Source: Escherichia phage Ecwhy_1. From it: a DNA stretch of 64,000 bases. Location: the sequence record MH791411.1, one strand, 5' to 3'. The translations under genes were made by a program, and so were the position numbers. The notes under the pieces are model-generated. The model was not told where the DNA came from. It worked only from the letters and a program-made list of their open reading frames with translations, and ran no database searches. Numbering within the stretch: the stretch's first letter is position 1; every line of letters begins with the position of its first letter. Of this stretch, positions 1 to 64,000 are shown piece after piece.

Positions 1-91
1 GTTTTATTTGTTAATCAAAAATGTTTTTGTATGCTTCAGATTACTACAAGCACCATTATATCTCGTGAATGATGCTTGTCTCAATTTTTTA

Positions 92-397
92 TCAGTATTT
101 TGTGTTCCAACGTTTAAGGTACGGCTTATCAGCGTTTACACCTGCACCAATGTTGAATTTGTAACGTAGATGTTCTAAGTCTTTTAACGTGTTAACATCT
201 TCAACAATGACAACTTTGCGTTTCTTTTCAATAGAATAGACGTCAACAATCTCACCGTCAATTTCAACAGAACCAGTTCTGGTGAAACCAGCAGACATTA
301 GAACAACTTCATCATCATTATTGTATGCAAGTACTGAATTTACGATAGTACTATCTTCCAGTACTGCACCAACACGCTTATAGATATTTTCCATATT
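92..397 (-). CDS. hypothetical protein (~101 aa, start taken at internal Met MENIYKRVG)
   Basis: ORF in track 92..493; start at 397 overlaps the stop of the upstream small ORF (translational coupling). No recognisable motif. Confidence 0.45.
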   Translation of the reverse strand, partial: NMENIYKRVGAVLEDSTIVNSVLAYNNDDEVVLMSAGFTRTGSVEIDGEIVDVYSIEKKRKVVIVEDVNTLKDLEHLRYKFNIGAGVNADKPYLKRWNTKY

Positions 398-536
398 ACT
401 CTCCTTGGGATGCACTCCATAAAACGTACTGTTCCCACGCCTCGTTAACACTGTCCTCAGACAGTGCCAGTGATTCATCAGATAATACGTCATTTACTTC
501 GTCATATTTTAGTTTAGTTTCGTCTGCAATAATCAT
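396..536 (-). CDS. small hypothetical protein (~46 aa, MIIADETKLKYDEV...)
   Basis: Track ORF 396..623 trimmed to the ATG preceded by AAGGAAA Shine-Dalgarno; sits just downstream of the polymerase stop. Confidence 0.3.
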   Translation of the reverse strand: MIIADETKLKYDEVNDVLSDESLALSEDSVNEAWEQYVLWSASQGE

Positions 537-546
537 AATATTTTCC

Positions 547-3500
547 TTACCAGGTGAAGAATCCGTTATTAACGGCTGCTGTGCTTTTCTCATGAATACC
601 AATATCCATATCCAGAATACCAAAAATGTTTTCTAATTTTTTAGTTAGAACTATTTCTTCCATTTTCTCTGTATCAAATGGTAGTTCTAAGAACCATTCA
701 GGTAGATATTCCACACAGTCAATTGGGTAACCTACTGCTTTGATACCCATCGGGTTATCTTTTAAGTTACATACAATTACTTTTGTACCGTCAGTTACTT
801 CAGGTACAGTTTTGTCATCATATACTTCACGTAGACGGTTCCATTGAATACCTGCTAATACGTGACCAACTTTACATTTACCAGAAACTTCATATTCTGC
901 TTCTAAGTTGGTATAGTTCTTAACAGTTTTCGGTGAACCCTTTTCGTGTACAGGCATGTCTTTAAATACCTCTTTAAAGTCACGTACACGCTGTTTAAGT
1001 TGAGCTTCAGACTCACCCACCAGCAATGCAATTAGAGTCTCTTCTAGGAAGTTCTGGATGTATTTTGGCGTATCTGAACGTTTAATTTCAAGACCCATCG
1101 CTTTAATTTCACCAGGCTTTCCATCAACATCTTTACGGAAACCATCTTCCCAGTACTTGAGAATTGCATAACGCTTTTTCTTCAGGAATAGACCACGGGA
1201 ACCGACCATCTCTAGGTCTGCACCAACAATCTTACCTTTCTCAATACCAGTATTGAACATTTCGTTCATGAATGAAGGGAATGATTCACCAACTTCATCA
1301 CCGATTTTGATATACATGTCAACGATTTCTTCTTTCGAAAGATTATATGGAATACCTTGTTCTTTCAGATAATGAGTTACACTGAAGTAAACAGAGTCAG
1401 TATCACCGTAAATCACAGAGCCACCTTGGTGATTATAAACGCCAGTAGTGATTTCATTGATACGGCTTGCCATATGTTTAGTCATAGAACGACCAGTTAA
1501 GGTAACGGACTGACCTAAACGTTTATCAAAGAAACGTGAACCTTTGTTCAATAGTGCACCATATAGACTGTTTAGAAGAATCTTACGAATTTGCTGGTTC
1601 TGTTTCCAGAATGCACTTTGCTGTTTGAAGTAATTCTTATCTTCCGTTGCACAGAAAATACGACCATCTTTCAGTACTAAACCATTTTCCACAATGAGTT
1701 TTGCAACTTCTTCCCATTGACCTTTACCAATAGCAATACGTAATAGATAAACAGGATCATTGTCATGTAAGTTTGTACGGAACATTGTACCACTTGTGTA
1801 GTTAGATAGCAAAGGTTCAACCTTCTCAGAACCATTGAATTCCCACCCATCACTATACATGTGTTTGTAGTCGATTACCATTTTTTGTTGTGCTTTACGC
1901 TCAGAATACCATTGAGTAAGAATATCTGGAATTACACCATACTTAGACTTATCAAAAAGTGTTCCGTTAGCACTTAGTACAATAGTACTGTCTTCAGCAA
2001 AGATAATATCATACAATTCTTTACCAGTTGCATTGAACGAACTACCATCTTCTAAATCAACAATCAAAGTTTTGTCAGATTTTTCATGAACCATTGTAAA
2101 TTCTACAGCAGCAAATAAACCATGCCATGCAGCGGTCCAATCAGGTTCAAACGCTTTAGATTTGGATTTAGCTTTTTGCTCTTGTACTTTAGCAGCAAGA
2201 TATGCATCAGTGTAGTCTTGACGAAGTTGTCCAAGAATACATTCAGTACTCATGCCAAGTGTACGTAGTACAGTTGGATACAATGAGTTAAAGTCTGTAC
2301 ATCCCAAATCGCTAACAAGGCCAAGAACTGGATCTTGAACCCATGCACCAGCAGCTTTTGCACTGATTTTCTCATCTTCTTCATCACCTTCTTCACCATA
2401 GTACTCCATCTCTGGATCTAACTCAATATCATCTTTCGGTGCTTTGTTAAAAACAACTTCACCGCGACTGTGAGCAAGGTTGATGATAGCAGTGTCGATT
2501 AGTGCAACCGAACCCATTGTAGTACTAATTAGTACACATTCTTTATGAGCAAGACGGTTGTGCAGGTTGATAAAGTCACATTTAGCATCAATTTTCTTTA
2601 GAAGAATACTATCCTGCTTAGAATAACGCAAGAATGTAATGTAATCTTCACGGTATAGTTTATCCAATGAACCTTCATAGGATACTTTGTTTTCTTTAGT
2701 TACCTTTTCAGCAATATAATCTAGTTTGTACGACTGTTCAACTTGACCAGCATGTTTCTTATAAAGAGCAAGATAGTCTAAGTGTACGCGTCCAATAAGA
2801 TCATATGTTACTACAGTTTTACCAAAGTTATCAGCTTCACGAGCATTTGGTTTTTTATTCCACAAGCACCAACGAGCAGTAGTTGCTTCGTTGAAGATTT
2901 TCTTGGTACGGTTTACCATATATGGAATATCAAAGAATTCACTGTTCCAACCTGAAATTACATCAGAGTCATCGATTAGACTAAAGAACTCCATAAACAT
3001 TTCTTTCTCATCCGTATAAAGGATGACAGTACTGTTAGGGTCGTTAGTTTCTTCGTTTAACTGACGAACAATATCTTGTGCTTCGTACATTTCCATATCA
3101 GTTGGTGGCAAAGTCAGTACATAATCCTTACCAGTCCATGATTGATATAGAGAAATTGCAGTTACGCGGTTGAATGGATCTGATGGTGGAGCATAACCAA
3201 ACTTCTTATGGAAGTCGGTTTCGATATCGAAAAATGCTACGTTCAAATCCGGCGAACCTTTACCCATGTATTCTCTAGCCAACGTTTTGAAGGTAATGTT
3301 GCAATCACTTTCAAAAATACGTAGACCTTCATTTTTATGTTGCTCAACGCTTTTATTCATCTGTGATTGAGTTTCAAACTCCAAATGCTTTGCGTTGGTT
3401 CCATAAATTGTTTTGTGTTCACCAGTAGGAGATTCAACATAATATTCATATACTGGGTCCAACTGACGTAGAATACGTTTACCGTTTTTACGTTCTGCTA

Positions 3501-3552
3501 CGTGCAAAATATCACCAGTACGTTTACGTTCCATATAAGCATCGATATACAT
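547..3552 (-). CDS. 43: DNA polymerase, family B (T4 gp43-like), 1001 aa
   Basis: Exo I motif FFDIETD, motif A DFNSLYPTV, motif B KILLNSLYGAL, motif C YGDTDSVYF; segments resemble T4 gp43 as recalled (WNSEFFDIPYMVNRTK, LDYLALYKKH). ATG at 3552 preceded by AAAGGA. Confidence 0.95.
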   Translation of the reverse strand: MYIDAYMERKRTGDILHVAERKNGKRILRQLDPVYEYYVESPTGEHKTIYGTNAKHLEFETQSQMNKSVEQHKNEGLRIFESDCNITFKTLAREYMGKGSPDLNVAFFDIETDFHKKFGYAPPSDPFNRVTAISLYQSWTGKDYVLTLPPTDMEMYEAQDIVRQLNEETNDPNSTVILYTDEKEMFMEFFSLIDDSDVISGWNSEFFDIPYMVNRTKKIFNEATTARWCLWNKKPNAREADNFGKTVVTYDLIGRVHLDYLALYKKHAGQVEQSYKLDYIAEKVTKENKVSYEGSLDKLYREDYITFLRYSKQDSILLKKIDAKCDFINLHNRLAHKECVLISTTMGSVALIDTAIINLAHSRGEVVFNKAPKDDIELDPEMEYYGEEGDEEDEKISAKAAGAWVQDPVLGLVSDLGCTDFNSLYPTVLRTLGMSTECILGQLRQDYTDAYLAAKVQEQKAKSKSKAFEPDWTAAWHGLFAAVEFTMVHEKSDKTLIVDLEDGSSFNATGKELYDIIFAEDSTIVLSANGTLFDKSKYGVIPDILTQWYSERKAQQKMVIDYKHMYSDGWEFNGSEKVEPLLSNYTSGTMFRTNLHDNDPVYLLRIAIGKGQWEEVAKLIVENGLVLKDGRIFCATEDKNYFKQQSAFWKQNQQIRKILLNSLYGALLNKGSRFFDKRLGQSVTLTGRSMTKHMASRINEITTGVYNHQGGSVIYGDTDSVYFSVTHYLKEQGIPYNLSKEEIVDMYIKIGDEVGESFPSFMNEMFNTGIEKGKIVGADLEMVGSRGLFLKKKRYAILKYWEDGFRKDVDGKPGEIKAMGLEIKRSDTPKYIQNFLEETLIALLVGESEAQLKQRVRDFKEVFKDMPVHEKGSPKTVKNYTNLEAEYEVSGKCKVGHVLAGIQWNRLREVYDDKTVPEVTDGTKVIVCNLKDNPMGIKAVGYPIDCVEYLPEWFLELPFDTEKMEEIVLTKKLENIFGILDMDIGIHEKSTAAVNNGFFTW

Positions 3553-4040: not shown

Positions 4041-4559
4041 TTAAACAGGTTTAACAGGGAACGAAAACTTCTTCTTACTAAATTCAGATGTTGTTAGAGA
4101 TGATAGCTCAAGAACATATGCTTTCAACTTAGGAAACAGTTCTATTTCATAATCAGTTGCTACCTCAAGATCTATCGCCATCTTAATGTTATTCAACTCA
4201 TTAATTGCTACGGTTCTTAATTCTTGGTGCTCAGATGATAGACGTTTGATCTTTTCATCAGTAGATTCAACATAATCAGAAATTTTACTTCCATCATAGA
4301 TTTTACCAACTACTTCATCTTCATCACCATCATGCTCCAACTCAGAAACACTGTATCCATACGGTACTAACAATGTTACATCATATGATGCTTGTGCAAT
4401 ATAACCATCATCAGAGTACTGAACTTTCAAAGTATCTTGTCTGAATTCGTTTTGACAATCATACCAGTCAACACCCTCATCTGACAATAGATAAAGAACA
4501 TTATCTCCATGTTTCTTTTCTACTGGGATATATTTTTTGAAATGTGTATATGTTTTCAT
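4041..4559 (-). CDS. hypothetical protein (172 aa), possibly tail-fiber assembly chaperone
   Basis: ATG at 4559 is 1 nt from the stop of the upstream fiber-like gene; function is a positional guess only. Confidence 0.45.
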   Translation of the reverse strand: MKTYTHFKKYIPVEKKHGDNVLYLLSDEGVDWYDCQNEFRQDTLKVQYSDDGYIAQASYDVTLLVPYGYSVSELEHDGDEDEVVGKIYDGSKISDYVESTDEKIKRLSSEHQELRTVAINELNNIKMAIDLEVATDYEIELFPKLKAYVLELSSLTTSEFSKKKFSFPVKPV

Positions 4560-4560
4560 A

Positions 4561-6189
4561 TTAAGACTCCACTACTACGTTAGTCCATACACCATTGACT
4601 AATTTTTGTGTATATCTCCAACTATAACCTTCAACGTGTGTACCTGAACTACCATTTACTGAAATAAACAACCCATCCAGTGTAGCACCTTCTGGTGCAT
4701 AGATCCAAGAAGAATCAGGAACACTTCGCGTAGATGTTCTTTTACTTAAACGAACATCTTGTACAGCACCTAGTGTTAAAGTTACGTTACCGTTTGCATC
4801 AGCGTTGTTACCGTTAATAGATCTGACGATGTTTTTACTAGCAACAGTTGCTATGTTTCCAGAAATAGACAATGATGCACCAGTTACTGATGGAGCATAA
4901 AGTACACCAGAAGAGTTAATTGTAACTTCAGAACCACCATTACTTCTCAAACGTAATGTATTTGTTGATGAACTGTGATAAATTGCTGCACGTTCAGTAG
5001 TTCCTGCCGCGTTACGGAAGTAAAGTACTAATGAAGTATCATTCGAACGAATTGTTGCACTGTTTGCGATACTTAATGAACCAGACATTGTATCACCAGT
5101 TTTCAGTACATAACGGGTGTTTGCAACTTTTTCACTCAATGCAACGTTAGACTCAGCAATGTTATATAAGTATGCCACATTAAAGTGTGGTACGTCAATA
5201 TTGCTAATTCCGTGGGTATGTGCTTGTCCACTACCAACGGTATTGGTTGAACCACTGAAACTATGCACGTGATCAGGTGCTTCGTTAATGTTATTAATTA
5301 CAGTTGGGATTCCGTTGTCGTTACTGGATGTTAACGCATTAAGACCACTTCTGTCCATACCTTTTAGTGCTTGACTATGACCATGACGACCAGCAGCACC
5401 AGTAGTTCCACTGAAACTAAATGAGTGCGGTGGAAGTTGAGCAATTGATATCGCAGTCCCACTAATTGATGCACTACTTGCAATCACACTATCAGTTTTA
5501 GTTACGCCTGATGTGGTAATGCCTTTCAAGTATGCTTCTTGGTTAAGATTTGGAACTTGTTTTGTGATTGTACCATTTTCACCAACCCATTGCCACCACA
5601 TTCCATCAGCAAAACACCAACCATCAGAAGTTTTCCACGGAGAACCTTGTGAACCATTACGACCACTTTGACCATTGGTCACACCAGACATCTGTTCACG
5701 AATACTAGCAACAGTTTGTCCAGAAGTCAATGAGTACTGGGTAATTGCACCAGGCTTCATTGAAGTATAAAGACCTGTTGGGCCAGTACCGCTACTTGAT
5801 GGAATAGGGAATACGATATTTAAATTCGTACCACTAATGCTCGCACTTGGAACAGCACTACTACTATATGTTACTGTTTCAACTTTTAAATTCAGTTTAC
5901 GGTTCACTTCATCGAGTGAAATACGGATTGGTTCAAGAATTGTATCAGTATCGTATACTGCAATCCAACTTGTCCCGTTGTGGTATTTTAACACCAACTC
6001 ATTTCTATCAAATACCATAGCACCTTGCTCACCTGCTGGCAATGCCTGTACTGGTAAAATGACAGAAGATGAATTAAAACGAATAGGTCTTGGATTAGTT
6101 GGTGTACCACCAAGCACTATTAGTTCTAAAGATCCATTAGCACCAGTACTAGTCATAGTATCCAGTGGGTTATTAAAACTTATGCTCAT
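4561..6189 (-). CDS. tail fiber / receptor-binding-like protein with His-x-His motifs (542 aa)
   Basis: Ser/Thr/Gly-rich fibrous composition; HSFSFSG, HGHSQ, HVHSFSG and HTHGISN motifs resembling the HxH metal-binding tips of T4 gp12/gp37; AATAAATA late-type motif about 35 nt upstream of the ATG. Confidence 0.55.
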   Translation of the reverse strand: MSISFNNPLDTMTSTGANGSLELIVLGGTPTNPRPIRFNSSSVILPVQALPAGEQGAMVFDRNELVLKYHNGTSWIAVYDTDTILEPIRISLDEVNRKLNLKVETVTYSSSAVPSASISGTNLNIVFPIPSSSGTGPTGLYTSMKPGAITQYSLTSGQTVASIREQMSGVTNGQSGRNGSQGSPWKTSDGWCFADGMWWQWVGENGTITKQVPNLNQEAYLKGITTSGVTKTDSVIASSASISGTAISIAQLPPHSFSFSGTTGAAGRHGHSQALKGMDRSGLNALTSSNDNGIPTVINNINEAPDHVHSFSGSTNTVGSGQAHTHGISNIDVPHFNVAYLYNIAESNVALSEKVANTRYVLKTGDTMSGSLSIANSATIRSNDTSLVLYFRNAAGTTERAAIYHSSSTNTLRLRSNGGSEVTINSSGVLYAPSVTGASLSISGNIATVASKNIVRSINGNNADANGNVTLTLGAVQDVRLSKRTSTRSVPDSSWIYAPEGATLDGLFISVNGSSGTHVEGYSWRYTQKLVNGVWTNVVVES

Positions 6190-49269: not shown

Positions 49270-49305
49270 TAAAAAAAAGGAGCCAATGGCTCCTTTTTTC
49301 TTTTT
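49270..49305. terminator. bidirectional terminator
   Basis: GGAGCC-aat-GGCTCC hairpin between an 8-nt A-run and a 12-nt T-run. Confidence 0.75.
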
Positions 49306-50404: not shown

Positions 50405-50416
50405 ATCATCACCTTA

Positions 50417-51025: not shown

Positions 51026-51034
51026 TTCTAATCC

Positions 51035-52769: not shown

Positions 52770-52783
52770 AAGAGGGTTGATAA

Positions 52784-54925
52784 ATGGCAGTTTTTTCCAA
52801 TTTAGAAGGGACCATGATGCCAACATTCAAGTTGGGTAAACGTGGTGCTTCTATTAATTTTGTAAACGATTCTGTCGCAATCAAAGACTTTTTAGGCGAA
52901 ACGTTCCTACCTGTTAAGGTGGGAACTCCTAATGACGATGATTCCGCAGTAAACGTTAGGTATCTTGAAGATAACCCAAATGCTTTATTTGGCGTACTTC
53001 CACCAACAAATGACATTGGTAAAAATAACAACACTTATTTTCAAGTTGATTCTGAGGGTATTGTTGATATCTTTGCAAAAACAAATGATGTTTGGGTAAA
53101 ATCATTATACATTAATAAAAATGTCCTTTCCAGTGTTAACGGTGCTGATTATATCGGACTTATTACTGGAGGAACACTTCAACAGGCACAGTTTTACATA
53201 ACTCCAGAAGAGTTTGGTGCAAAAGGTGATGGCATCACTGATGACACGGCGGCGGTTAACGCATGTGCAGTTTATGCTAAAGAACACAAAATCCAAATTC
53301 AAGCTGGTGGTAATTATCGTATCAGAACTGCTGTTTATTTGAATGATATTCAATGGTTTGGTGGTACAATCACTGGTAACGGTGGCACAATGGTATCGGT
53401 ACTGAATAGTACAATCCAACAAGCAACATTAACAGGATGTTATTTAAAATTCTTTGGTGGTAATGGTAAATTTTATTTTAATAAATTTATTAATATTACA
53501 AGTACTGCTGCATTTCTAATGCAAGGTATGACTGAATCAGGTACTATCGACTTCTGCTTTAATGAAATGACACAATGTAAGTACGGTGTTCTTCAGCAAG
53601 GCACTGGTGAGAAAATGACCGTTGGGCGTTATTCATACAACCACATCCATGATATATATGGTGATGCAATTGAATTGAACGTAGTCAACTCACATTACCC
53701 AGACGGATTTGTAATAGAAGGTAACTTGATTGAAAACGTAGATGGTACAAATGCACCAATTCCTCTTTCAAACTGGGGTATTGGTATCGGTGTTGCAGGT
53801 TCTGGTCCTTATGATGTGAATGCTGATGATTCACAATATGTAAAAAAATTCGTTATAAAAAATAACCGCTTGTACAATGTCCGTCAATGTATTCACGTTG
53901 AGTTGGGTAAAGACTTTAAAATTCTCAATAATGAAGTTTATCCATCAACGTTGGTATCAATTGGTACTGGTTTGACAACCGCTGGTGTAATTACTTATGG
54001 TTCTGTTGATTTTATTATTGATGGCCTATCTGGGCATCTATTAAATGATCCATCAGTAACTAACCGTATGGTTTCTATTAACTGGGGCGTAACATCTGGT
54101 AAATTTGCTGGTCCTCCACGAAACTTTAAATTATGTAATCTCCACATTCCTGAGTCGTCTATTATTGTGTATACTTCAGGCTCTGATAATTGGCTAAATA
54201 CTACTGAACTTTCTAATATTACATGTAGTAGAATTCAATGGCGTGGATTGCCGTCATCTTCCAAGTTTAATAATATCAGTACTAAAGAACTTGATGTTAT
54301 TGGACAACACCTTGCAACTGAAGGTGAAGGAGGGGGCTTATATACTCGCTCTAAATATACATATACCAACTGGACTAATTGTGTTGTTCAAGATGATTGT
54401 AACATATCAAAATATAGTTTCTCAAGAATGTATGTTGACCGTATTGACCAATCATCTAATAACTTTAAAGTAACCACTGCAATTGATGGAACGGGTCATC
54501 GTGGACCTGTAGTAATACCTGTAGTTGAACAGTATTACGTGCCTTATGATGTTTTTCCTGGTGGGAGATATTTCCCAGCAGGAACAATTATCCATAAACA
54601 ATCAGGTGGAAAATTTATTGTTACAGTAGGTGGTTCTTTCTTTGGTCGATATGACACAATTAGACAAACAGTTGCAGGACAAACTTATATCGAAGCATTG
54701 GGTGTATCATGGGGTGATAATCAATATGCTAAAGCTGCTGGAACCGAAATCCTAATCACAGGAGCAGGGGAAAATGGCGAAGATTTAAAAACATATATCA
54801 CTAGAGCAGTTTATGTTGTTAATAATGCGTATCGTATCGATATTGCCGATCCGATTGTTACTGCTACCGCAGCAGGGGCATTATTGAAAGCTGCTCAACC
54901 AATAACATATATCACCCTATCTTAA
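52784..54925 (+). CDS. tailspike with pectate-lyase-like beta-helix (probable polysaccharide depolymerase), 713 aa
   Basis: ITPEEFGAKGDGITDDTAAVNA is the hallmark N-terminus of pectate-lyase-3-type tailspike beta-helices; N-terminal MAVFSNLEGTM adapter shared with the next gene. Confidence 0.6.
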   Translation: MAVFSNLEGTMMPTFKLGKRGASINFVNDSVAIKDFLGETFLPVKVGTPNDDDSAVNVRYLEDNPNALFGVLPPTNDIGKNNNTYFQVDSEGIVDIFAKTNDVWVKSLYINKNVLSSVNGADYIGLITGGTLQQAQFYITPEEFGAKGDGITDDTAAVNACAVYAKEHKIQIQAGGNYRIRTAVYLNDIQWFGGTITGNGGTMVSVLNSTIQQATLTGCYLKFFGGNGKFYFNKFINITSTAAFLMQGMTESGTIDFCFNEMTQCKYGVLQQGTGEKMTVGRYSYNHIHDIYGDAIELNVVNSHYPDGFVIEGNLIENVDGTNAPIPLSNWGIGIGVAGSGPYDVNADDSQYVKKFVIKNNRLYNVRQCIHVELGKDFKILNNEVYPSTLVSIGTGLTTAGVITYGSVDFIIDGLSGHLLNDPSVTNRMVSINWGVTSGKFAGPPRNFKLCNLHIPESSIIVYTSGSDNWLNTTELSNITCSRIQWRGLPSSSKFNNISTKELDVIGQHLATEGEGGGLYTRSKYTYTNWTNCVVQDDCNISKYSFSRMYVDRIDQSSNNFKVTTAIDGTGHRGPVVIPVVEQYYVPYDVFPGGRYFPAGTIIHKQSGGKFIVTVGGSFFGRYDTIRQTVAGQTYIEALGVSWGDNQYAKAAGTEILITGAGENGEDLKTYITRAVYVVNNAYRIDIADPIVTATAAGALLKAAQPITYITLS

Positions 54926-54939
54926 AGGAGATTATAAAA

Positions 54940-55839
54940 ATGGCAGTTTTTTCTAATTTAGAAGGAACCATGAAGAAGACCTTCATACTTGGTAAAAATG
55001 GTGCACAAATTGCCACTAATGGTAATGTTGTTCAAATCCAGAACTACACGGGTACACAACTTCTTCCTGTTTCAGCAGGTGACCCAACCGCAAATACACA
55101 CTTGGTTACATTGGGTTATTTGAATACACATAGCGGTGGTGGTGGTGGTTCCGGTATTTTACGTGGAACTATTGCACCATCTGAATCAATCGGTGTAGAT
55201 GGTGACGCTTACTTCTTAGTTGACAGTACTAATATTATTCAGATCTATATTAAAGACCTTGGTGTTTGGAAGCCTCTCCAAAGCACAACTCCAGGTACTG
55301 ATAGTTCTTACGTTACTACTGAAATCGTTCCTGTATCGGCATTTACATTAGTTCCTGGAACAACAGATCAATATACTTATTCTTTGCCTGAATCAGTACA
55401 TGGTCGTGGTCCAGATATTATGGTTCAGCTACAGGGTGATCCTGGTAACATCCCACTTGACACTGTATTCCAAACTAACGTCACTGTGAGTGGTATTGGT
55501 GACATTACGATTGATGTTATTGGTCAAATCACTGAATACACAAGTGTCAAAGTCAACATCATAGGAGCAACAACAATGACAGTACCTTATAGTAAATTAA
55601 TTAATATAGCAGATTGGGTAGCATCTGGTGATGATTACACCATTACTGTTCCAGCGTCAGAACATAACCAAACACCTGACAATTTGTATATTTCTATATA
55701 TTCAAATAAAACACCAGGCAGTACAGCAGCATCACCATTTGAACTGGTAATAACCGAAACTCAAATTGATGCAAGTGGTAATGTTACATTCACTTCTGAC
55801 GAAGCGTTTAGTGGTAAAATAGTAATTTCCGGTAAATAA
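54940..55839 (+). CDS. second receptor-binding protein sharing the N-terminal adapter, 299 aa
   Basis: First ~35 nt nearly identical to 52784 (MAVFSNLEGTM...LGK.GA); distinct C-terminal domain; poly-Gly linker GGGGGSG. Confidence 0.5.
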   Translation: MAVFSNLEGTMKKTFILGKNGAQIATNGNVVQIQNYTGTQLLPVSAGDPTANTHLVTLGYLNTHSGGGGGSGILRGTIAPSESIGVDGDAYFLVDSTNIIQIYIKDLGVWKPLQSTTPGTDSSYVTTEIVPVSAFTLVPGTTDQYTYSLPESVHGRGPDIMVQLQGDPGNIPLDTVFQTNVTVSGIGDITIDVIGQITEYTSVKVNIIGATTMTVPYSKLINIADWVASGDDYTITVPASEHNQTPDNLYISIYSNKTPGSTAASPFELVITETQIDASGNVTFTSDEAFSGKIVISGK

Positions 55840-55845
55840 AAAAAA

Positions 55846-55882
55846 TAGTCCAGACTATGATTCATCTAGTCTGGATTTTTTA
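55846..55882 (+). terminator. rho-independent terminator
   Basis: TAGTCCAGACTA / TAGTCTGGA stem followed by TTTTTT. Confidence 0.7.
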
Positions 55883-55889
55883 TATCAAT

Positions 55890-55915
55890 AACTAAATATA
55901 TGTATATTAACAAGG
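55890..55915 (+). repeat. fiber-gene promoter box AACTAAATATATGTATATTAACAAGG (copy 1; copy 2 at 60972..60998)
   Basis: Near-identical 26-27-bp element 43-44 nt upstream of both long-fiber ATGs; contains late-type ACTAAATA. Confidence 0.6.
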
Positions 55916-55957
55916 TCAAATGTATTTTATGCTTTTTGCCTATTTGGAGGGAACTAA

Positions 55958-58900
55958 ATGTACTCGATTAAAACAGATCTCGATATAACTGGTGGTGCAA
56001 CGGTTGCTAAAGATCTTCTTGTGAAAGGCGATGCAGTATTCAATAAAAATCTAACAGTTAATGGAACTGTAACTTTTGCTGACGCTGTATTCACTGCAAT
56101 TGAAGCAGAAACTGTAGACATTTCATCTACACTAGATGTTGCTGGTAAAGCATCATTGAATGGTGGAATTGAAGTTCATGGTAATTCCGTAATTGGTAAT
56201 TTGCCTGTTGGTTCTGATACTGCAACGATTAATTCTAATGCACAATTCCAAAGCCCAGTATCAATGGCAGGTAATCTAACACAAACCGCTGGCACTGCTG
56301 TACTAAAAGATACCCAAGTGGCATCAATGGATGTTCTTGGGACTTCTTCATTTAAAGGTAATATTACTGCTGAAACTGGCACTACCGCAGCATTTGACAA
56401 AATAACTGCAACTGATGCAACATTCACAAACACTGCAACTACTGATATCACATCAACTGGAACTGCAAACTTTAAAGATGTGAATATTTCCGGTACACTA
56501 GGTGGAACATTTAGTCTATCTGATGTTAATGCAACAACTCTAACTGTTTCTGGTTTAACCAGTCTACAAGGTGGTGTTACATTAGGTTCCAACATTACTG
56601 GTGTGAATAGTAGTGCAAACTTCCGTGATATTAAAATTGGTTCCAATGCTGCAAACACTAACTACCGTTTGAGCTTTAACTATTCTGCTCCAAGTCTTCG
56701 TCCAACTGTAATTCTACAGAACGAAATCCAATCAGAATTGATGTCTCCAGCTACCCTAAGTGTATTGAAAACTGCATCTTTTGGTGATTCGTCACTATCC
56801 ACTTTTGGTATTACTGGTAATGGTCTAAACAAACTAGATTACCTAACAGTATCTGGTAACTCTGTTCAAGATCCAACAACTCCACTATTACAAGTAACTT
56901 CAGGTAAAACTAAAGTTCATGATTTCGAAGTAACAGGAACTGCAACTATTCCTAACATTGAAAGTACTGGTACTGCTAATTTTAATAACATCAACGTATC
57001 TGGTACACTCGGTGGTACTTTCAGTCTTGATGATATTGAAGCAAACACACTAACTGTATCCGGTTTAACTAGCCTTGTTGGTGGTGTAACTTTAGGTGCT
57101 GATATTTCCGGTGCTAATAGTACTGCTAATTTTAAAGCAGTAAGTTTAGGACAAAACGCCGCCGATGCTAACGTTAAGTATGGTTTTGCTTATTCTGCCC
57201 CTGGTGCTCGCCCAACTGTAATTCTACAAAATGAAATTCAGTCTGAGCTAGTATCTCCAGCAGTACTTAATGTACAAAAAACTGCAACCTTTGGTGATGC
57301 ATCTCTTGCAACCTATGGTATCACAGGTAACGGTCTAAACAAACTAGATTATCTATCTATTACTGGTAATGGTACACAAAGTCCAGCTACCCCACAACTA
57401 CAAGTTGCTGGTAAATCAGTACTAAATGATGTTGAATTCACTGGTACTGTAACTGGTCTAACTGTTGATGTGAGTGGACAAGATCTAACTCCTAAATCAG
57501 TAGATGCTGCTGAAGCAATCAAAGGTCAAACCCTTGAATCAGTTGGTCAAACCACAGTAGGAACTAACCTACAAGTTGGTGGAACTGCTAATGTTGTTGG
57601 TGCACTAACTGGTACTGCTGCTACCTTCACTGGTGATGTAAGTGCTGCTAAAGGTACTTTCAGTGGTGATGTTAGCGTTACTGGTCAAACTGTAACTGTA
57701 CGTGATTTAGTAGTAACTGGTACAACTACTGGTGTAACTGCCCAAGCTGATGTTGATGGTCTTGATATCGCCCCAAATAAAGTTGATGTTACAACAACAC
57801 TATCTGTTGCTGGGGACACTACTTTAGCTGGCCTAACTGCTAGTTCAGTAACCAGTACTGGTGATGTTACTGGTGCGTCTGTATCTGGTAATACAGTAAC
57901 TGCGGCTGGGGCACTATCTGGTGGTTCTCTTGCAGTAACTGGTGCTGGTTCTATGGCTTCACTAACTGTTCCAAGTATTACTGGTGACACTACTTTTGCT
58001 AATAACGTAACTATTACTGGAACACTAACTCCGAGTAGTATAGATTTAAGCACTACTGATGTAAGTGCTGCTTCTTTAACAACTACTGGTAACGTAACTG
58101 TTGGTGGTTCTCTTGCAGTAACTGGTGCTATTGATTTGTCTGCTGCTGATGTAGTAACAAAATCAGTTAGTGCAACTAACCCAAGTACATTTGGTGTAAT
58201 TAATGCATCTTCTGTTGCCGCAACTGGTGACGTTTCAGGTGGCACACTAACTACTACTGGTGCAGCGAAAGTAGGAACACTAACTAGTACTGGTGTAGTA
58301 TCTGGTTCGCGTTTGTCTTCTGGTACTGCAACAATCACAACTTCTGTAACAGTTCCAACTTTACAAGCTGAAGCTGCTGGTGCTGGTACACTAAATCTAG
58401 CAAGTAATGTTGTCGCGGCAAAAGATCTAACTGTCACTGGTGTATTCAAACCTGAAGGTGGTCTTGATCTAACAACTGTTGATATTACTGCAAACTCACT
58501 AACTACTACTGCTGATGTTAATGTTGGTGGAAACTTAGTAGTTGATGGTACTTTTGACCTAAGTGCTGCTGATGTGTCTGTGAAATCTCTTGCAAGTGCA
58601 GAGACAATTACAAGTGCTGGTGTTATTACCGTTACCGATTCAACCAATACTAGTTCGTTACCTAAAATTACTTCAACTGATGCAACACTCTTTACAGTAA
58701 ATGCAGGTACTATTAATGCAACTGGTAACAGTGTACTACAAAGTGTATCAGCTACTCAAGTAACTGCTAATAGTGCTGAATTTTCTGGTGGTGGCCTTGG
58801 TCTTCAAGTTGATAATGATGCAAACGTTGGTGGTGCATTATCTGTTGGTGGCATTGCAACTGTTGGTTCTTTAACAACAACTGCTGCTTCTCTTAATATT

Positions 58901-60892
58901 GCAAAAAATACTGCAATCACTGGTGATTTAGCTGTATCTGGCACACTAACTGCTGGTTCAATCGACCTAAGCAATACTGATGTAACCGTTAAATCTCTTG
59001 ATTCACTAGGTAACGCACACATTGCTGGTAACCTAACTGTAGATGGTGCATTCGACTTAAGTGCAACTAACCTTGTAGCTGCAAGTCTAGCAAGTACTGG
59101 TTCTACTACTGTTGGAACTGATCTAGTACTAACAACTGGTGTTGTGACTGGTAGCCCAGCTATCTCTGGTAATACAACAATCGGTGGAACTCTTGGTGTA
59201 ACTGGTGCTGTTAACCTAACTGATATTGTTAATATCGGTAAGAAAGTAACAGTGAGTACTGGTGGTATTCAGGTAGTTGATGGTGGTATCAATACTAACA
59301 CAATTAACGTTTCTGGTGCTTCTACTCTAGCAGGAACTTCCATTACTGGAACTTTAGGTGTAACTGGTGCTTCTACTCTAGCAGGTGTATCTGCGACATC
59401 ACTAACAGTTTCTGGTGACAGTACTGTTCAGAAACTAACTGTCCAAGGTGAATTGATCCCACAAGGTGGTCTTGACCTAAGCGGTGCAGACATTACTGCT
59501 AATAGTCTAACTACTGCGACAACTATCAATGCAACTGGCCTAAGTACTCTAAGTGGTGGTGTTAGTACTTCTACTGTGACTGCATCTGGTCTAGCAACTG
59601 TTGGAAGTTTAACTTCTACTGCAAACGCATCAGTTGGTGGTAATTTGGGTGTAACTGGAACTCTAGGTGTTACTGGTGCAACTACTGTATCTTCACTAAC
59701 AGCTACTGGTGCAGTGAAAACTGGTACAACCCTAACTGTTGGTACTCCAGTTGGTGAACAACCTGAAACTGTACAGATCATTCCAGATACTTATATTGCT
59801 GGTAAATTGCGTGTAATCGGTGGTATTAACGCTGAAATCGACGTAAGTGGTCAAACACTAGAACCATATGCAATTGAAGCTGCTGCAACACTATCTGCTG
59901 TTGGTAACATTACTTCTGGTGCAACCATCGTTTCTAAAGCTGCAACAATTGGTGATGTTGGTTCACAAAACAACAACCTAACTGTTAATGGTAACGTAGT
60001 AACTAATGGTGACTTCACCGTTACTGGTGTACTAAATGCACAATTGAACCAAGCAGATTCCGATGTAGCTGTTAAGTCTTTGACTGCAACTAATAACGTT
60101 GCGGCTGGTACTTCAATCACTGCTGGAACATCCATCACTGCATCAGGCTTACTAAAAGGTAATTCGTTAGAAGTCACCACTACTGGTTCATTTGGTGGTG
60201 CAGTAACTATGTCAAGTGGTGCAAACATCACTGGTACTGTTGGTATCACTGCTGGTGACCTAACAGTAGGTGGTAATATCTCTGCAACTGGTACTGCTGG
60301 ATTCGGTGCAACAACCGTTTCTACCATTACAACATCAGGTTTAGCTACCCTTGCAAGTGCATCTGTAACTGGTGCTCTAACTGTAGGTGGTACATTAACT
60401 GCAAATGGTAACACTGTGATTGGTGATGCTGCTGCTGATACTTTAACTGTAAATGCAACATCTACATTTAAAGAGAACGCAACATTTGATAAGAACCTAA
60501 CAGTGACTGGTTCTATTAACACCACCACTGCAAACTTCACTACAAACAACATGGTAACTAAGAAATATTCTGTTATCCCTGCTAGTGTTACTGCTTCTAC
60601 TGCTGCTGTAGGTGGCACTTGGACACCAGATGGTACTACTAACGTATATCGCTTAACTCTTGACCAAAGTGTTACAATGGATTCCATCGCGGGTCTAATT
60701 GGTAGTGGTCAAGCATGTTCAGTGTATATCTATGTAACTCCATCTGTTGCTGATACTACTTTCACCTTCGGTGGTGCATACTCTGTAGTTTCTGGTACAG
60801 TAAGTGCTGTAGTTGGTCAAACAAGTATTATCCAAGTAATCTATGATGGTTTCAGTACTGTGTTTGATACCTTCGTTGCACAACGTGTATAA
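55958..60892 (+). CDS. long tail fiber protein, 1644 aa
   Basis: Thr/Gly/Ala/Val/Ser-rich with many internal repeats (ISGTLGGTFSL..., TGNGLNKLDYL..., VDVSGQDLTPKS... each occurring twice or more); GGAGGG SD. Confidence 0.65.
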   Translation: MYSIKTDLDITGGATVAKDLLVKGDAVFNKNLTVNGTVTFADAVFTAIEAETVDISSTLDVAGKASLNGGIEVHGNSVIGNLPVGSDTATINSNAQFQSPVSMAGNLTQTAGTAVLKDTQVASMDVLGTSSFKGNITAETGTTAAFDKITATDATFTNTATTDITSTGTANFKDVNISGTLGGTFSLSDVNATTLTVSGLTSLQGGVTLGSNITGVNSSANFRDIKIGSNAANTNYRLSFNYSAPSLRPTVILQNEIQSELMSPATLSVLKTASFGDSSLSTFGITGNGLNKLDYLTVSGNSVQDPTTPLLQVTSGKTKVHDFEVTGTATIPNIESTGTANFNNINVSGTLGGTFSLDDIEANTLTVSGLTSLVGGVTLGADISGANSTANFKAVSLGQNAADANVKYGFAYSAPGARPTVILQNEIQSELVSPAVLNVQKTATFGDASLATYGITGNGLNKLDYLSITGNGTQSPATPQLQVAGKSVLNDVEFTGTVTGLTVDVSGQDLTPKSVDAAEAIKGQTLESVGQTTVGTNLQVGGTANVVGALTGTAATFTGDVSAAKGTFSGDVSVTGQTVTVRDLVVTGTTTGVTAQADVDGLDIAPNKVDVTTTLSVAGDTTLAGLTASSVTSTGDVTGASVSGNTVTAAGALSGGSLAVTGAGSMASLTVPSITGDTTFANNVTITGTLTPSSIDLSTTDVSAASLTTTGNVTVGGSLAVTGAIDLSAADVVTKSVSATNPSTFGVINASSVAATGDVSGGTLTTTGAAKVGTLTSTGVVSGSRLSSGTATITTSVTVPTLQAEAAGAGTLNLASNVVAAKDLTVTGVFKPEGGLDLTTVDITANSLTTTADVNVGGNLVVDGTFDLSAADVSVKSLASAETITSAGVITVTDSTNTSSLPKITSTDATLFTVNAGTINATGNSVLQSVSATQVTANSAEFSGGGLGLQVDNDANVGGALSVGGIATVGSLTTTAASLNIAKNTAITGDLAVSGTLTAGSIDLSNTDVTVKSLDSLGNAHIAGNLTVDGAFDLSATNLVAASLASTGSTTVGTDLVLTTGVVTGSPAISGNTTIGGTLGVTGAVNLTDIVNIGKKVTVSTGGIQVVDGGINTNTINVSGASTLAGTSITGTLGVTGASTLAGVSATSLTVSGDSTVQKLTVQGELIPQGGLDLSGADITANSLTTATTINATGLSTLSGGVSTSTVTASGLATVGSLTSTANASVGGNLGVTGTLGVTGATTVSSLTATGAVKTGTTLTVGTPVGEQPETVQIIPDTYIAGKLRVIGGINAEIDVSGQTLEPYAIEAAATLSAVGNITSGATIVSKAATIGDVGSQNNNLTVNGNVVTNGDFTVTGVLNAQLNQADSDVAVKSLTATNNVAAGTSITAGTSITASGLLKGNSLEVTTTGSFGGAVTMSSGANITGTVGITAGDLTVGGNISATGTAGFGATTVSTITTSGLATLASASVTGALTVGGTLTANGNTVIGDAAADTLTVNATSTFKENATFDKNLTVTGSINTTTANFTTNNMVTKKYSVIPASVTASTAAVGGTWTPDGTTNVYRLTLDQSVTMDSIAGLIGSGQACSVYIYVTPSVADTTFTFGGAYSVVSGTVSAVVGQTSIIQVIYDGFSTVFDTFVAQRV

Positions 60893-60910
60893 CATTTTAA
60901 ATTAATAATT

Positions 60911-60944
60911 AAAGCCAACTTTTTTAGTTGGCTTTTTCTTTTGT
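60911..60944 (+). terminator. rho-independent terminator
   Basis: AAAGCCAACT-tttttt-AGTTGGCTTT hairpin followed by a T-run. Confidence 0.75.
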
Positions 60945-60971
60945 ATTAGATAATAGTGTTTTTGTGAATTA

Positions 60972-60998
60972 AACTAAATATAAGTATATTAACAAAAG
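60972..60998 (+). repeat. fiber-gene promoter box, copy 2
   Basis: AACTAAATATAAGTATATTAACAAAAG, near-identical to 55890..55915. Confidence 0.6.
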
Positions 60999-61041
60999 AT
61001 GGGTTATGAATATATAGTTCATCGTTATAGGAGGGGACTCT

Positions 61042-64000
61042 ATGTACTCGATTAAAACGGATCTTGATGTATCTGGTAATTCCACGGTAGGTAAGGATCT
61101 TTTGGTCAAAGGTAATGCAGTATTCAGTAATGACCTAACGGTTAATGGGGAAGTGTCTTTTGCTAACGCAGTATTCACTGCAATTACCGCTGGTTCTGTG
61201 AATGTCACAGGTGCATTGGATGTTGCTGGTAAGGCAACCTTATCCGGTGGTGCTGATGTTTCAGGTGCTGCGACATTTGCAGGAAACATTACTGCTGCTG
61301 GCGGCACAACTGCAAAATTTGATAACTTAGAAGCTAATTCAGGATCATTTGATTCTGTTGAATCAACTGATATTACTTCAACTGGCACAGCAACTTTTAA
61401 AGATGTAAACATTTCTGGTACACTTGGTGGTACTTTTAATCTTTCTGATATTAATGCTACAACACTTAATGTGTCTGGTGCTTCAGCACTAACTGGTTCA
61501 GTCACATTGGGTGCAAATATCACTGGTCTTGCAAGTACTGCAAACTTCCGTGATATTCGTATCGGGCCTAATGAAGCAGGTCAAGCATATAGACTAAACT
61601 TTGGTTACACCGTTCCAGGACAACGACCAACCGTTCTTCTACAGAACGAAGTTCAATCCGAACTAATGTCACCAGCTAAGTTGAATGTTCTACAAACTGC
61701 AACATTTGGTGATTCTTCACTTTCAACTTACGGTATTACAGGTAATGGTTTAAACAAATTAGATTATGTAACTATTTCTGGTAACGCAATTCAATCACCA
61801 ACCACTCCTTTACTTGAAGTAACTAAAGGTAAAACTAAAGTTGTTGATTTAGAAGTAACTGGTGTAGCAACTATTCCTAATATCGAAAGTTCTGGTACTG
61901 CAAACTTTAACAACATCAACGTATCTGGTACTATTGGTGGTAGTTTTGATTTAGATGATATCCAAGCAACAACATTATCAGTATCCGGTGCTTCAGCACT
62001 AACTGGTGCAGTTACATTGGGTGCAAACATCACTGGTCTAGCAAGTACTGCAACATTCAAAGCAATCAATTTGGGTCAAAATACCGCTGATGCTAACGTT
62101 AAGCTAGGTTTTGCATATACTGCACCTAGTGCACGTCCAACAGTCTTGTTAGCAAACGAAGTTCAATCTGAACTAATGTCTCCTGCTAAGTTGAACGTTC
62201 TACAAACTGCAACCTTCGGTTCTGCTGCACTATCTACCTATGGTATTACTGGTAATGGTCTAAACAAATTAGATTATCTAACAATTACTGGTAACGCAAC
62301 ACAAAACCCTGCTACTCCACAACTTCAAGTTGGTGGTAAAGCAATTCTTAATGATGTTGAATTTACAGGTACTGTAACTGGCCTAACTGTTGATGTGAGT
62401 GGACAAGATCTAACTCCTAAATCAGTAGTTGCTGCTGAAGCAATCAAAGGTCAAACTCTTGAATCAGTTGGTCAAACAACTGTAGGTTCATCTCTACAAG
62501 TTGGCGGTACTGCAACTGTTACTGGTGCATTATCTGCTGCCTCTGGTACTTTCAGTGGTGATGTTAGTGGTTCTAAAGGTATCTTCAGTGGTAGCGTATC
62601 CGGTACAAGTGCAACCTTTACTGGGGATGTTAGCGGTGATAACGCAACCTTTAGTGGCGATTTATCTGCTGTAGCTGGCACTTTCAGTGGTGATGTAACC
62701 GTAACTGGTCAAACAATCACTGTTAAAGACTTGGTAGTAACTGGAACTTCAACTGGTGTAACTGCAATCGCTGACGTTGACGGTCTTGATATTGCTCCAA
62801 ACAAAGTTGATGTTACAACAACTCTATCTGTTGCTGGTGAATCAACTCTTGCTGGTATTACAGCAACTTCAATCAATAGTACTGGTGCAATTGCAGGTAC
62901 TGCAATTTCTGGCTCTACTATTACAGCAACTGGTGAAATTTCTGGTGCATCATCTGTAGTAACTGGTCTTTCTAAATCTGGTAGCGTTGAAACTGGTGCT
63001 CTAAAGGCATCTTCTGTTGAAACTGCAATCATTAGCAACACTGCTGGTGTGTCAATAACAAACAACACTTCCATTGCAGGTAATCTATCTGTGACTGGAA
63101 CTGTTACCCCTGGTGCAATTGACCTAAGCACTACTGATATTGATGCTAAGTCCCTAACTACAACTGAAGGTGCTAACATTGGTGGTAACCTAGTTGTTGC
63201 AGGTACAGTTGATCTAAGTGCTGCTGACGTTGCTGTTAAATCTCTAACCAGTACTGGTGCAGTTATTAGTTCTGAAGGTACTGTAAGTAGTGTTCTACCT
63301 AAACTTTCCAGTACTGAAGCTAATATTACCACAGTAACTGCAACCACTGCAAATGCTACCACACTAAATGTAACTGGTACATCAACTCTAGCTGGTGTTA
63401 ACGCTTCTGGTGCTATTACTTCTGCAACTAACATTACCGCTACTGGTGTATTAAAAGGTGCATCTGTTGAAACTGCGTCAATCAGCAATGCTGATGGTGT
63501 AGCAATTAACAATAACACTACAATCACTGGTAATTTGGACGTATCTGGGACATTGACCCCTGGTGCAATTGACCTAAGCACTACTGATATTAGTTCTAAG
63601 TCTCTAACCACAACTGAAGGTGCTACAATTGGTGGCGATCTTGTGGTAGCAGGTACTGTTGACCTAAGTGCTGCTGATGTGTCTGTGAAATCTCTTGCAA
63701 GTGCAGAGACAATTACAAGTGCTGGTGTTATTACAGTTTCGGATACAGTGAATTCTAGCACTCTACCAAAACTAATTACTACTGATGCAACTATTGGTGC
63801 TGTCCATGCAGCTACTATTGAAACAACTGGTTCAAGTACACTAAAACAAGTATCTGCTACTGAAGTAACAGCTACAAGTATTGTACTAAATTCAGTTGGT
63901 GAAGGTTTACGTGTTGACAATAATGCAAACATTAATGGTATATTAAGTGTTAATAATATTACTTCTACCAATGATACTATTGCAATTGCGAAAAGTGCTG
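61042..64000 (+). CDS. second long tail fiber paralog, 5' partial (continues beyond the window)
   Basis: Not in the ORF track because no stop occurs before the window end; ATG at 61042 with GGAGGGG SD; N-terminus MYSIKTDLDVSGNSTVGKDLLVKGNAVF is nearly identical to the 55958 gene. Confidence 0.6.
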   Translation, partial: MYSIKTDLDVSGNSTVGKDLLVKGNAVFSNDLTVNGEVSFANAVFTAITAGSVNVTGALDVAGKATLSGGADVSGAATFAGNITAAGGTTAKFDNLEANSGSFDSVESTDITSTGTATFKDVNISGTLGGTFNLSDINATTLNVSGASALTGSVTLGANITGLASTANFRDIRIGPNEAGQAYRLNFGYTVPGQRPTVLLQNEVQSELMSPAKLNVLQTATFGDSSLSTYGITGNGLNKLDYVTISGNAIQSPTTPLLEVTKGKTKVVDLEVTGVATIPNIESSGTANFNNINVSGTIGGSFDLDDIQATTLSVSGASALTGAVTLGANITGLASTATFKAINLGQNTADANVKLGFAYTAPSARPTVLLANEVQSELMSPAKLNVLQTATFGSAALSTYGITGNGLNKLDYLTITGNATQNPATPQLQVGGKAILNDVEFTGTVTGLTVDVSGQDLTPKSVVAAEAIKGQTLESVGQTTVGSSLQVGGTATVTGALSAASGTFSGDVSGSKGIFSGSVSGTSATFTGDVSGDNATFSGDLSAVAGTFSGDVTVTGQTITVKDLVVTGTSTGVTAIADVDGLDIAPNKVDVTTTLSVAGESTLAGITATSINSTGAIAGTAISGSTITATGEISGASSVVTGLSKSGSVETGALKASSVETAIISNTAGVSITNNTSIAGNLSVTGTVTPGAIDLSTTDIDAKSLTTTEGANIGGNLVVAGTVDLSAADVAVKSLTSTGAVISSEGTVSSVLPKLSSTEANITTVTATTANATTLNVTGTSTLAGVNASGAITSATNITATGVLKGASVETASISNADGVAINNNTTITGNLDVSGTLTPGAIDLSTTDISSKSLTTTEGATIGGDLVVAGTVDLSAADVSVKSLASAETITSAGVITVSDTVNSSTLPKLITTDATIGAVHAATIETTGSSTLKQVSATEVTATSIVLNSVGEGLRVDNNANINGILSVNNITSTNDTIAIAKSA

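Follow-up and report, generated by a model that had tools for sequence, protein, structure and literature searches.

Escherichia phage Ecwhy_1 as a very probable member of the Rak2-like genus Asteriusvirus, with T4-type core genes in the order of its clade and a candidate structured RNA

The Rak2-like phages have T4-like homologs but lack some universal T4 core proteins; Pectobacterium phage CBB, for example, has 21 of the 38, and trees of portal and capsid proteins place the Rak2-like group in a well-supported clade far from the Tevenvirinae (PMC5259590). The Atu_ph07 paper likewise describes T4-like jumbo phages (jumbo meaning above 200 kb) that form a "Rak2-like" clade, in most of which ClpA is conserved (PMC6102473), and the fEgEco12 paper reports strong synteny within the genus Asteriusvirus, where vB_Ec-M-J, BF17, and fEgEco12 are separate species clusters (PMC13070987). 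Here we analyze a 64-kb stretch of the record Escherichia phage Ecwhy_1 (MH791411.1), which we call the window and to which all our data refer. We conclude, with a probability of about 0.96, that the window comes, as one continuous piece, from the genome of an E. coli jumbo myovirus of the genus Asteriusvirus (members 310-386 kb) within the Rak2-like clade; it also carries, between T4-type genes 26 and 49, a candidate structured RNA.

When the window was cut into three thirds and each was run by megablast against 50,697 phage records, at least 9 E. coli jumbo phages matched every third at 98.5-99.7% identity over 92-100%. The relatives at about 99% are EC.P1 (PQ657772), WPEC3, WPEC5, vB_Ec-M-J (OQ718158), BF17, fEgEco12, CMSTMSU, TH47, and Turkey3, and the records that match the window at 98% or more are genomes of 352-386 kb. 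Gene order and orientation in EC.P1, vB_Ec-M-J, BF17, WPEC3, WPEC5, fEgEco12, Turkey3, and CMSTMSU are identical to those of the window, which is set apart from these nearest relatives by about 0.3-1.5% point differences and, in vB_Ec-M-J, BF17, and Turkey3, by different distal fiber genes beyond about 62.4 kb. Given about 99% identity and an order shared across Asteriusvirus, the window is therefore read as a segment of a known Rak2-like jumbo phage. Specifically, i) the nucleotide similarity by which Asteriusvirus is delimited (above 70%, taken as identity times aligned fraction) is exceeded over the available 64 kb; ii) the organization is collinear, since the feature tables of vB_Ec-M-J and EC.P1 map one-to-one to the open reading frames (ORFs) of the window, and the megablast alignments of both phages to the window are single blocks of 54-56 kb; and iii) GenBank assigns both vB_Ec-M-J (as Caudoviricetes; Asteriusvirus) and BF17 to this genus, which NCBI taxonomy places directly beneath the class and outside Straboviridae. 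Within the genus, the window groups with EC.P1, vB_Ec-M-J, BF17, fEgEco12, and CMSTMSU in one sub-lineage.

About 27 further records match at 83-86% identity by megablast, including PBECO4, 121Q, slurp01, G17, and Sharanji; for PBECO4, 121Q, and slurp01 this identity extends over 95-100% of window positions 1-50 kb. PBECO4 and av121Q are collinear with the window and are themselves E. coli jumbo myoviruses of about 350 kb, but they form a separate species-level cluster (below 95%), and the receptor-binding region of the window (50-64 kb) finds a match in them over only 61-69% of its length, at 78% identity. Weaker bands (60-80%) come from Klebsiella, Salmonella, Cronobacter, Yersinia, Serratia, Erwinia, Pectobacterium, and Xanthomonas jumbo phages. 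The other Rak2-like genera, Mimasvirus (CBB, GAP32), Eneladusvirus (Serratia BF, Yersinia fHe-Yen9-04, Erwinia pEa_SNUABM), and Alcyoneusvirus (RaK2, K64-1), have proteins 55-90% identical to those of the window and DNA that can be aligned in patches, at the 60-80% just mentioned; their hosts and fiber sets differ from those of the window phage. Portal identity falls in the same direction, from 100% in EC.P1 through 77% in RaK2 and 37% in SCTP-2 to about 24-30% in Tevenvirinae, cyanophages, and Vi01-like phages.

Gene order is conserved well beyond the genus. In CBB (Mimasvirus) everything from the polymerase to the giant virion protein has the order and orientation of the window, apart from one extra structural gene after endonuclease VII, and the published CBB core table, which lists gp25 as CBB_238, gp53 as 242, gp55 as 244, gp46 as 246, endonuclease VII as 248, the portal as 252, the capsid as 257, and the polymerase as 263 (PMC5259590), gives the order found in the window. 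Uncultured IMG/VR contigs have the same local gene order. We infer that the arrangement was inherited within the clade and is not a recent rearrangement. The lineage, its partial T4 core, and this gene order are already known, and the layout of the window is the normal published one for the group.

Window proteins were run by tblastn against the whole T4 genome, and T4 proteins were scanned against PHROGs. If the T4 superfamily is defined by a shared T4 core gene set (the definition of Petrov et al. 2010 as used in PMC5259590), the window falls within it, having homologs of gp43, 46, 47, 55, 20, 21, 23, 5, 6, 25, 53 (weak), 26, and 15, as well as gp49. Identities to T4 range from 22 to 37%: 24-28% for the polymerase against gene 43 (E 6e-24); 34%, 30%, and 28% for gp23, gp21, and gp20 (gp23 also matches gp24 at 22%); 31% for gp46 and 32% for gp47; and 37% for the gp5 lysozyme domain. 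For gp25 (E 0.002), gp15 (0.02), and gp49 (0.04), and more weakly for gp53 (0.17), gp55 (0.19), and gp26 (0.7), the best tblastn match is below threshold and lies on the expected T4 gene. The PHROGs common to T4 and the window are phrog_219 for gp6; 227 and 11196 for gp15; 234 and 12791 for gp55; 423 for gp49; 261 and 43 for gp25; 150 for gp26 (T4 7e-71); and 232 for gp53. Direct tblastn of the gp6-like protein against T4 gave no match, and its homology rests on the shared phrog_219. T4 gp7, 8, 9, 10, 11, 12, and wac were undetectable within the window.

In T4 gene numbers, the window reads 43; tail fiber and fiber assembly; endonucleases; 23-21-20; a virion protein; 26; the RNA element; 49; 46-47-55; 53; a virion protein; 5; lysozyme; 25; 6; the giant protein; ClpA; a virion protein; 15; Nudix; and fibers. 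On the T4 map, 43 lies at 27-30 kb, 46 and 47 at 33-36 kb, 55 at 40 kb, and 49 at 46 kb, and among the late genes 53, 5, and 6 lie at 77-83 kb, 15 at 95 kb, 20, 21, and 23 at 101-106 kb, and 25 and 26 at 115-116 kb. Three blocks (20-21-23, 55-47-46, and 53-5-6) retain T4 order and relative orientation, but the joins between blocks differ. Thus genes 43 and 23 are 4.5 kb apart in the window and lie at 27-30 kb and 105 kb in T4; gp26 and endonuclease VII stand between the head genes and gp46; the spike carries its lysozyme domain at the C-terminus; and ClpA and a 3333-aa virion protein are present. Close protein similarity together with the T4 late order (53-5-6-7-8-...-20-21-22-23-24; 25-26-51-27-28-29-48-54), as expected of Straboviridae or Tevenvirinae, is not found: identity is 22-37% and the order of modules differs. 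Most of what the preliminary description had said of this region is borne out by the direct comparison, namely that gene order and orientation are unlike T4, that the capsid genes lie near the polymerase, that gp25 sits between the spike and gp6, and that ClpA, Nudix, and nuclease genes, all located here by profile scans, are interspersed. Its list of recognizable T4-type modules is right for polymerase, capsid, gp46/47/55, baseplate, and fibers, each now placed at coordinates by Pfam, PHROGs, or NCBIfam, but the neck it named is reduced to gp15.

The baseplate block departs from T4 in the direction of P2 and Mu. In T4, genes 25 and 26 adjoin each other at 115 kb and gene 6 is 34 kb away, whereas in the window gp25 lies between the spike and gp6. 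In Mu the spike gp45 is followed by gp46 and gp47, matching the P2-type arrangement. The P2 order V-W-J-I-H-G, of which V-W-J-I was read from NC_001895, runs from spike to gp25/W to gp6/J to the next wedge protein and then fibers, as does the window. Unlike P2, the window has a lysozyme gene between spike and gp25, proteins of T4-type size and family (the gp6-like protein is 1153 aa, gpJ 302 aa), and a T4-like remainder of the virion module. In our reading, the block retains an ancestral, P2/Mu-like adjacency of spike, gp25, and gp6 in an old sister lineage of the T4-type phages, with lineage-specific genes (a ClpA-like ATPase, a Nudix hydrolase, homing-type endonucleases, and giant virion proteins) interleaved among the T4-type core.

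T4-type head genes alongside a P2-like V-W-J order could also suggest a recently rearranged member of Straboviridae, or a chimeric assembly of T4-like and P2-like modules. We consider this very improbable: the order recurs in uncultured contigs and in independently sequenced genomes of phages of E. coli, Cronobacter, Pectobacterium, Serratia, Yersinia, and Erwinia; the proteins diverge from T4 to a uniformly high degree, with no mosaic pattern; and the PHROGs of gp25 and gp6 are shared with their T4 counterparts and not confined to P2-type families. That the window is from a hitherto unseen, deep-branching relative of T4 with a newly discovered gene order has next to no probability, since low identity to T4 and a module order unlike T4 are set against DNA identity of about 99% along its full length to many deposited genomes, a named genus, and T4-core content and a separate clade already in print (PMC5259590, PMC6102473). 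The preliminary description had inclined to a deep-branching phage and had itself named the observation that would speak against it, namely that some described genus matches it closely and shares its gene order; relatives at about 99% in Asteriusvirus are such a match. What survives is the description of a deep-branching relative that is no close kin of T4 (22-37% identity, nearest relatives outside Straboviridae); what does not is the implied novelty of a lineage that had been described before.

Several points weigh against placing the window in Asteriusvirus, or against calling its genes T4-type, as firmly as we do. No record is 100% identical to the window, the best being 99.2-99.7%; the fiber end (about 60-64 kb) is matched by only some close relatives; similarity to named species is measured on 64 kb; and the clade placement comes from sequence comparison. 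Among the individual genes, the gp53 assignment is weak, its Pfam score being just below the cut-off; no gp13 or gp14 equivalent was identified in the window; and the giant virion protein, which occupies the position of T4 gp7 and P2 gpI after gp6, has no Pfam, PDB, or T4 gp7 (phrog_964) similarity.

The only item in the window that is possibly new lies in about 840 bp without a credible ORF; on one side is a 69-aa ORF located after the hub gene, and on the other is endonuclease VII. We lean towards reading the ORF-free stretch 17582-18231, on the minus strand, as an undescribed structured RNA of about 455 nt that would be one of 3-5 anciently diverged paralogs. Conserved sequence runs past the predicted terminator to about 17582, taking in a CCCCCC/GGGG hairpin and two CTGACGAnGAT motifs, so the element may be composite. 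At its left border, right behind the 69-aa ORF, stands a strong hairpin that resembles a bidirectional terminator (17489-17518 on the plus strand, 17501-17477 on the minus strand).

The element is 92-93% identical in PBECO4 and 121Q, where the flanking genes are 83-86% identical, and its core is 68-76% identical in Mimasvirus, Eneladusvirus, and Xanthomonas and Salmonella jumbo phages, each of these genomes matching in 4-5 places. Searching IMG/VR by motif and then by nhmmer gave a family of 33 copies, which come from about 20 loci and fall into at least 10 sequence clusters (example paralogs are L029:4273-4959, L030:2806-3383, and L017:11884-12687). Every Rak2-like genome examined has 3-5 co-oriented paralogs at intervals of about 55-86 kb: 121Q has them near 193, 248, and 327 kb, Serratia BF has them at 174, 259, and 335 kb, and in nine other genomes there are pairs 77-86 kb apart. 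Orthologs from different genera cluster at 80% or more and paralogs are 60-72% identical; the duplications therefore predate the genera, each copy having been retained. Matches to the core motif in Sodalis, Nitrospira, Rhodococcus, an Enterobacterales metagenome-assembled genome, and several metagenomes proved by nhmmer to be chance, and only those on jumbo-phage contigs are real. Nor did nhmmer find a homolog of the family in T4.

None of the GenBank records examined annotates the element as RNA. An independent annotation, that of Yersinia phage fHe-Yen9-03, has a -35/-10 promoter at this position on the same strand; the UE-S1 record has a "repeat_region" feature there; and some records have small hypothetical ORFs. 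Rfam 15 gave no gathering-level match in the window, and permissive filters on 17400-18400 gave three unrelated sub-threshold matches. Literature searches found no published description of a noncoding RNA (ncRNA) in Rak2-like phages, an absence that is weak evidence; the ncRNAs of PA5oct are reported to have similarity to no GenBank sequence except the closely related isolate MIJ3 (PMC7318152).

Two of these annotations bear on whether the element is an RNA gene at all. It could instead be a DNA-level origin or initiator-binding region, a dispersed repeat or mobile remnant, or a small protein-coding gene, and we regard this set of alternatives as unlikely. Co-oriented copies, 3-5 per genome and about 55-86 kb apart, would suit multiple origins, as would the two conserved motifs and the GC hairpin beyond the terminator suit a DNA element, and UE-S1 calls the element a repeat. 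Conservation on one strand argues otherwise: TATAAT is invariant in 20 of 20 aligned copies and preceded by TG in nearly all (on the minus strand of the window), and 18 of the 20 end on that strand in a hairpin and U-run whose stem varies by compensatory changes. So does the pattern of substitution, since pairing is maintained across 213 double-sided changes in 15 helices (at least 14), several of which are long-range, as expected for RNA and not for duplex DNA sites. The hypothetical ORFs in some records speak for a small protein; against it, the lengths of indels between copies are not divisible by three, and the frame of the candidate ORFs is broken from copy to copy.

For the structured RNA that we favor, RNAalifold gave 68 pairs, 41 of them with compensatory changes. 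A 79-pair, 16-helix structure, which includes a pseudoknotted helix (GUUGC/GCAAC), pairs 93.9% of cells against 79.7% in shuffles (0 of 500) and has double-sided changes at 48 pairs against 28.1 in shuffles (0 of 500) and 8-14 in slid controls, figures to be read with the provisos that one alignment served both to derive the structure and to test it and that the shuffles do not preserve phylogeny. Long-range covariation is strong, for example between columns 393-399 and 547-553 of alignment A3 and between columns 457-461 and 542-546. We do not claim the local hairpin designated helix 9 (A3 columns 382-410), which pairs in only 52% of cells. In each of two mirror-image tests, counts of G.U against A.C point to the minus strand (48:18 and 36:22), a strand-specific asymmetry that again tells against a DNA element; single-sequence folding (z -2.5 and -2.7 for the two strands) does not separate them, and the strand is therefore called from promoter, terminator, and G.U asymmetry. 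The predicted transcript thus has what is generically expected of a structured ncRNA: compensated helices, its own promoter and terminator, and no conserved frame.

With a host-type extended -10 promoter and an intrinsic terminator, the RNA would be transcribed by host RNA polymerase. Two roles are conceivable, that of a large functional ncRNA and that of a structured primer RNA at several replication origins; the latter is speculative, if compatible with copy number, spacing, and co-orientation, and an origin with a structured primer like ColE1 RNA II would be compatible with all the evidence for the element as RNA. The class of large structured bacterial and phage ncRNAs that includes GOLLD, ROOL, and OLE (PMC12286853) resembles the candidate in length (above 400 nt), in its many covarying helices including a pseudoknot, and in being phage-borne; the candidate differs in having no Rfam 15 match, 3-5 paralogs per genome, and no consistent tRNA neighborhood near its copies. 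A scan for tRNA and tmRNA genes found none in the window.

The coordinates of all features are collected in Table 1. Sizeable ORFs were scanned with Pfam, PHROGs, and NCBIfam; some program-listed starts were too long and were revised by reference to vB_Ec-M-J and EC.P1 homologs and to the onset of PHROG matches, namely those of the hub gene, the neighboring large virion structural protein, gp55, and the giant protein.

Table 1. Features of the 64-kb window, left to right, with strand and supporting matches (E values follow family names).
Feature	Position	Strand	Matches and remarks
Family B DNA polymerase (gp43 homolog)	547..3552	-	DNA_pol_B_exo1 1e-22, DNA_pol_B 3e-21; phrog_262 1e-219
Tail fiber assembly protein	4041-4559	-	phrog_136 5e-34; Pfam Caudo_TAP 6e-9
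Tail fiber protein	4561-6189	-	phrog_13229 9e-247
T5orf172/MUG113-domain protein	6231-6554	-	Pfam T5orf172 3e-13
Hypothetical protein	6579-6938	-	
HNH-type endonuclease	6953-7876	-	
Major capsid protein gp23	8010-9185	-	Pfam Gp23 1e-89
Hypothetical protein in scaffold position	9276-10391	-	
Prohead protease gp21	10458-11078	-	Pfam Peptidase_S77 8e-21
Virion protein	11110-11955	-	
Portal gp20	12345-14081	-	Pfam Portal_T4 3e-112
Large virion structural protein	14094..16292	-	phrog_14121 5e-297 from residue 70
Baseplate hub, T4 gp26 homolog	16438..17274, likely ATG 16438	+	Pfam T4_baseplate 1e-23; phrog_150 6e-32
Candidate structured RNA gene	17742..18231; conserved element 17582-18231	-	
Terminator hairpin and U-run	17766-17747	-	
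Predicted transcript, ~455 nt	about 18195 to 17742	-	
Promoter-like site	18202-18231	-	-10 hexamer TATAAT 18202-18207, TG before it (TGnTATAAT)
Endonuclease VII (T4 gp49 homolog)	18324..18815	+	phrog_423 3e-34; Pfam Endonuclease_7 weak, 0.0085
gp46	18834-20981	-	phrog_77 4e-107
gp47	20994-22043	-	phrog_100 5e-77
Late sigma factor gp55	22012-22851, start uncertain, ORF to 22953	-	phrog_12791 1e-152, phrog_234 2e-16
Virion protein	22983-23714	+	
gp53-like protein	23714-24028	+	Pfam Phage_gp53 3e-4, just below cut-off; phrog_232 7.5e-4
Virion protein, 751 aa	24040-26295	+	
gp5-like spike, OB domain and C-terminal lysozyme	26309-28972	+	Phage_base_V 8e-7, Phage_lysozyme 2e-10; phrog_13211
Stand-alone lysozyme paralog, 162 aa	29010-29498	+	
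gp25	29514-29909	+	GPW_gp25 2e-8; phrog_43/261
gp6-like wedge protein, 1153 aa	30012-33473	+	phrog_219 3e-21
Giant virion structural protein, about 3320-3333 aa	33554..43525	+	phrog_10938 full length
ClpA-like double AAA+ ATPase	43559..45871	-	TIGR02639 ClpA 6e-226; AAA_2, AAA, ClpB_D2-small; phrog_4871
Virion protein	45956-47452	+	
gp15-like tail sheath stabilizer/completion protein	47449-48792	+	Pfam T4-gp15_tss 5e-22; phrog_11196, phrog_227
Nudix hydrolase	48805-49269	+	Pfam NUDIX 3e-15
Three Rak2-group proteins, 366, 202, and 165 aa	49304..51532	-	phrog_14394, phrog_11259, phrog_13657
Tail protein	51642-52769	+	
Colanic-acid-degrading tailspike	52784-54925	+	
Virion protein, 299 aa, tailspike-type N-terminal motif	54940-55839	+	
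Giant fiber, 1644 aa	55958-60892	+	
Second giant fiber, N-terminal 994 codons	61018 to window end	+	Open frame; EC.P1 gene is 1906 aa

The tail fiber and fiber assembly genes (4041..6189) sit between the polymerase and the head module, and are separated from the capsid gene by the genes at 6231-7876, which are probable insertions of homing-endonuclease type (phrog_681 2e-63, phrog_559 8e-26) and recall segD beside gene 23 in T4. Nowhere else in 1-60 kb does the window depart structurally from its closest relatives; the divergence is a 300-600-bp patch within the HNH endonuclease gene (7350-7671 against EC.P1, 7516-7940 against vB_Ec-M-J). Beyond the portal, the large virion structural protein (14094..16292) has no Pfam, NCBIfam, or T4 match; its homolog in vB_Ec-M-J and EC.P1 is 2199 bp, labeled "tail length tape measure" in vB_Ec-M-J, and a start at 16292 rather than 16499 is likely.

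In the baseplate block, the spike lysozyme domain occupies residues 765-882, and the spike also has a weak M23 peptidase signal. The 162-aa lysozyme matches the spike's own C-terminal domain (phrog_13211 positions 727-885), and the domain and adjoining gene look like a tandem duplication; CBB has the same arrangement. The giant protein is annotated as virion structural in vB_Ec-M-J and CBB and is conserved full length across the clade (10,023 bp in CBB). PDB sequence searches with the gp6-like, 3333-aa, 502-aa, and 751-aa proteins gave no match at E of 0.1 or below. The ClpA-like gene lies antisense amid the tail and baseplate genes; its match to TIGR02639 is full length at 752 bits, below the equivalog cut-off, and there is no ClpP or ClpS gene within the 64-kb window. 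The three proteins encoded at 49304..51532 are conserved in the Rak2 group, and at least one is a virion protein (vB_Ec-M-J lists them as virion structural proteins).

The receptor-binding cluster (51642..64000) matches phrog_13565, phrog_6117 (4e-252), phrog_10468, and phrog_4549. Its two adjacent giant fiber genes are paralogous, with about 73-78% identity over several stretches of 300-1240 nt, and contain periodic internal repeats of 510 nt and 33 nt. The tailspike (52784-52850) and the 299-aa protein (54940-55009) both begin with MAVFSNLEGTM as a direct repeat, and over the 65 bp at 54940-55004 identity stays at 91-95% even in phages of Erwinia, Serratia, Yersinia, Xanthomonas, and Pectobacterium in which the neighboring DNA cannot be aligned; this region is probably an N-terminal anchor shared by several receptor-binding proteins and a recombination boundary. 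Minus-strand ORFs at 60969-61523 and 62709-63971 were rejected as spurious, having no family matches and lying antisense to the plus-strand fiber ORF; they are artifacts of the repetitive, low-stop fiber sequence.

The main value of the analysis lies in a clean annotation of the segment and its correct taxonomic placement, in which it adds nothing beyond the papers on Rak2, GAP32, CBB, and Asteriusvirus. The RNA candidate is another matter. If the reading is true, it would be a new class of phage RNA, highly structured, present in several copies, retained in at least four jumbo-phage genera, and listed neither in Rfam nor in any GenBank annotation examined; it would be found in phages of a tractable host, E. 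coli, and could bear on how a 350-kb phage genome is replicated or how the host is manipulated.

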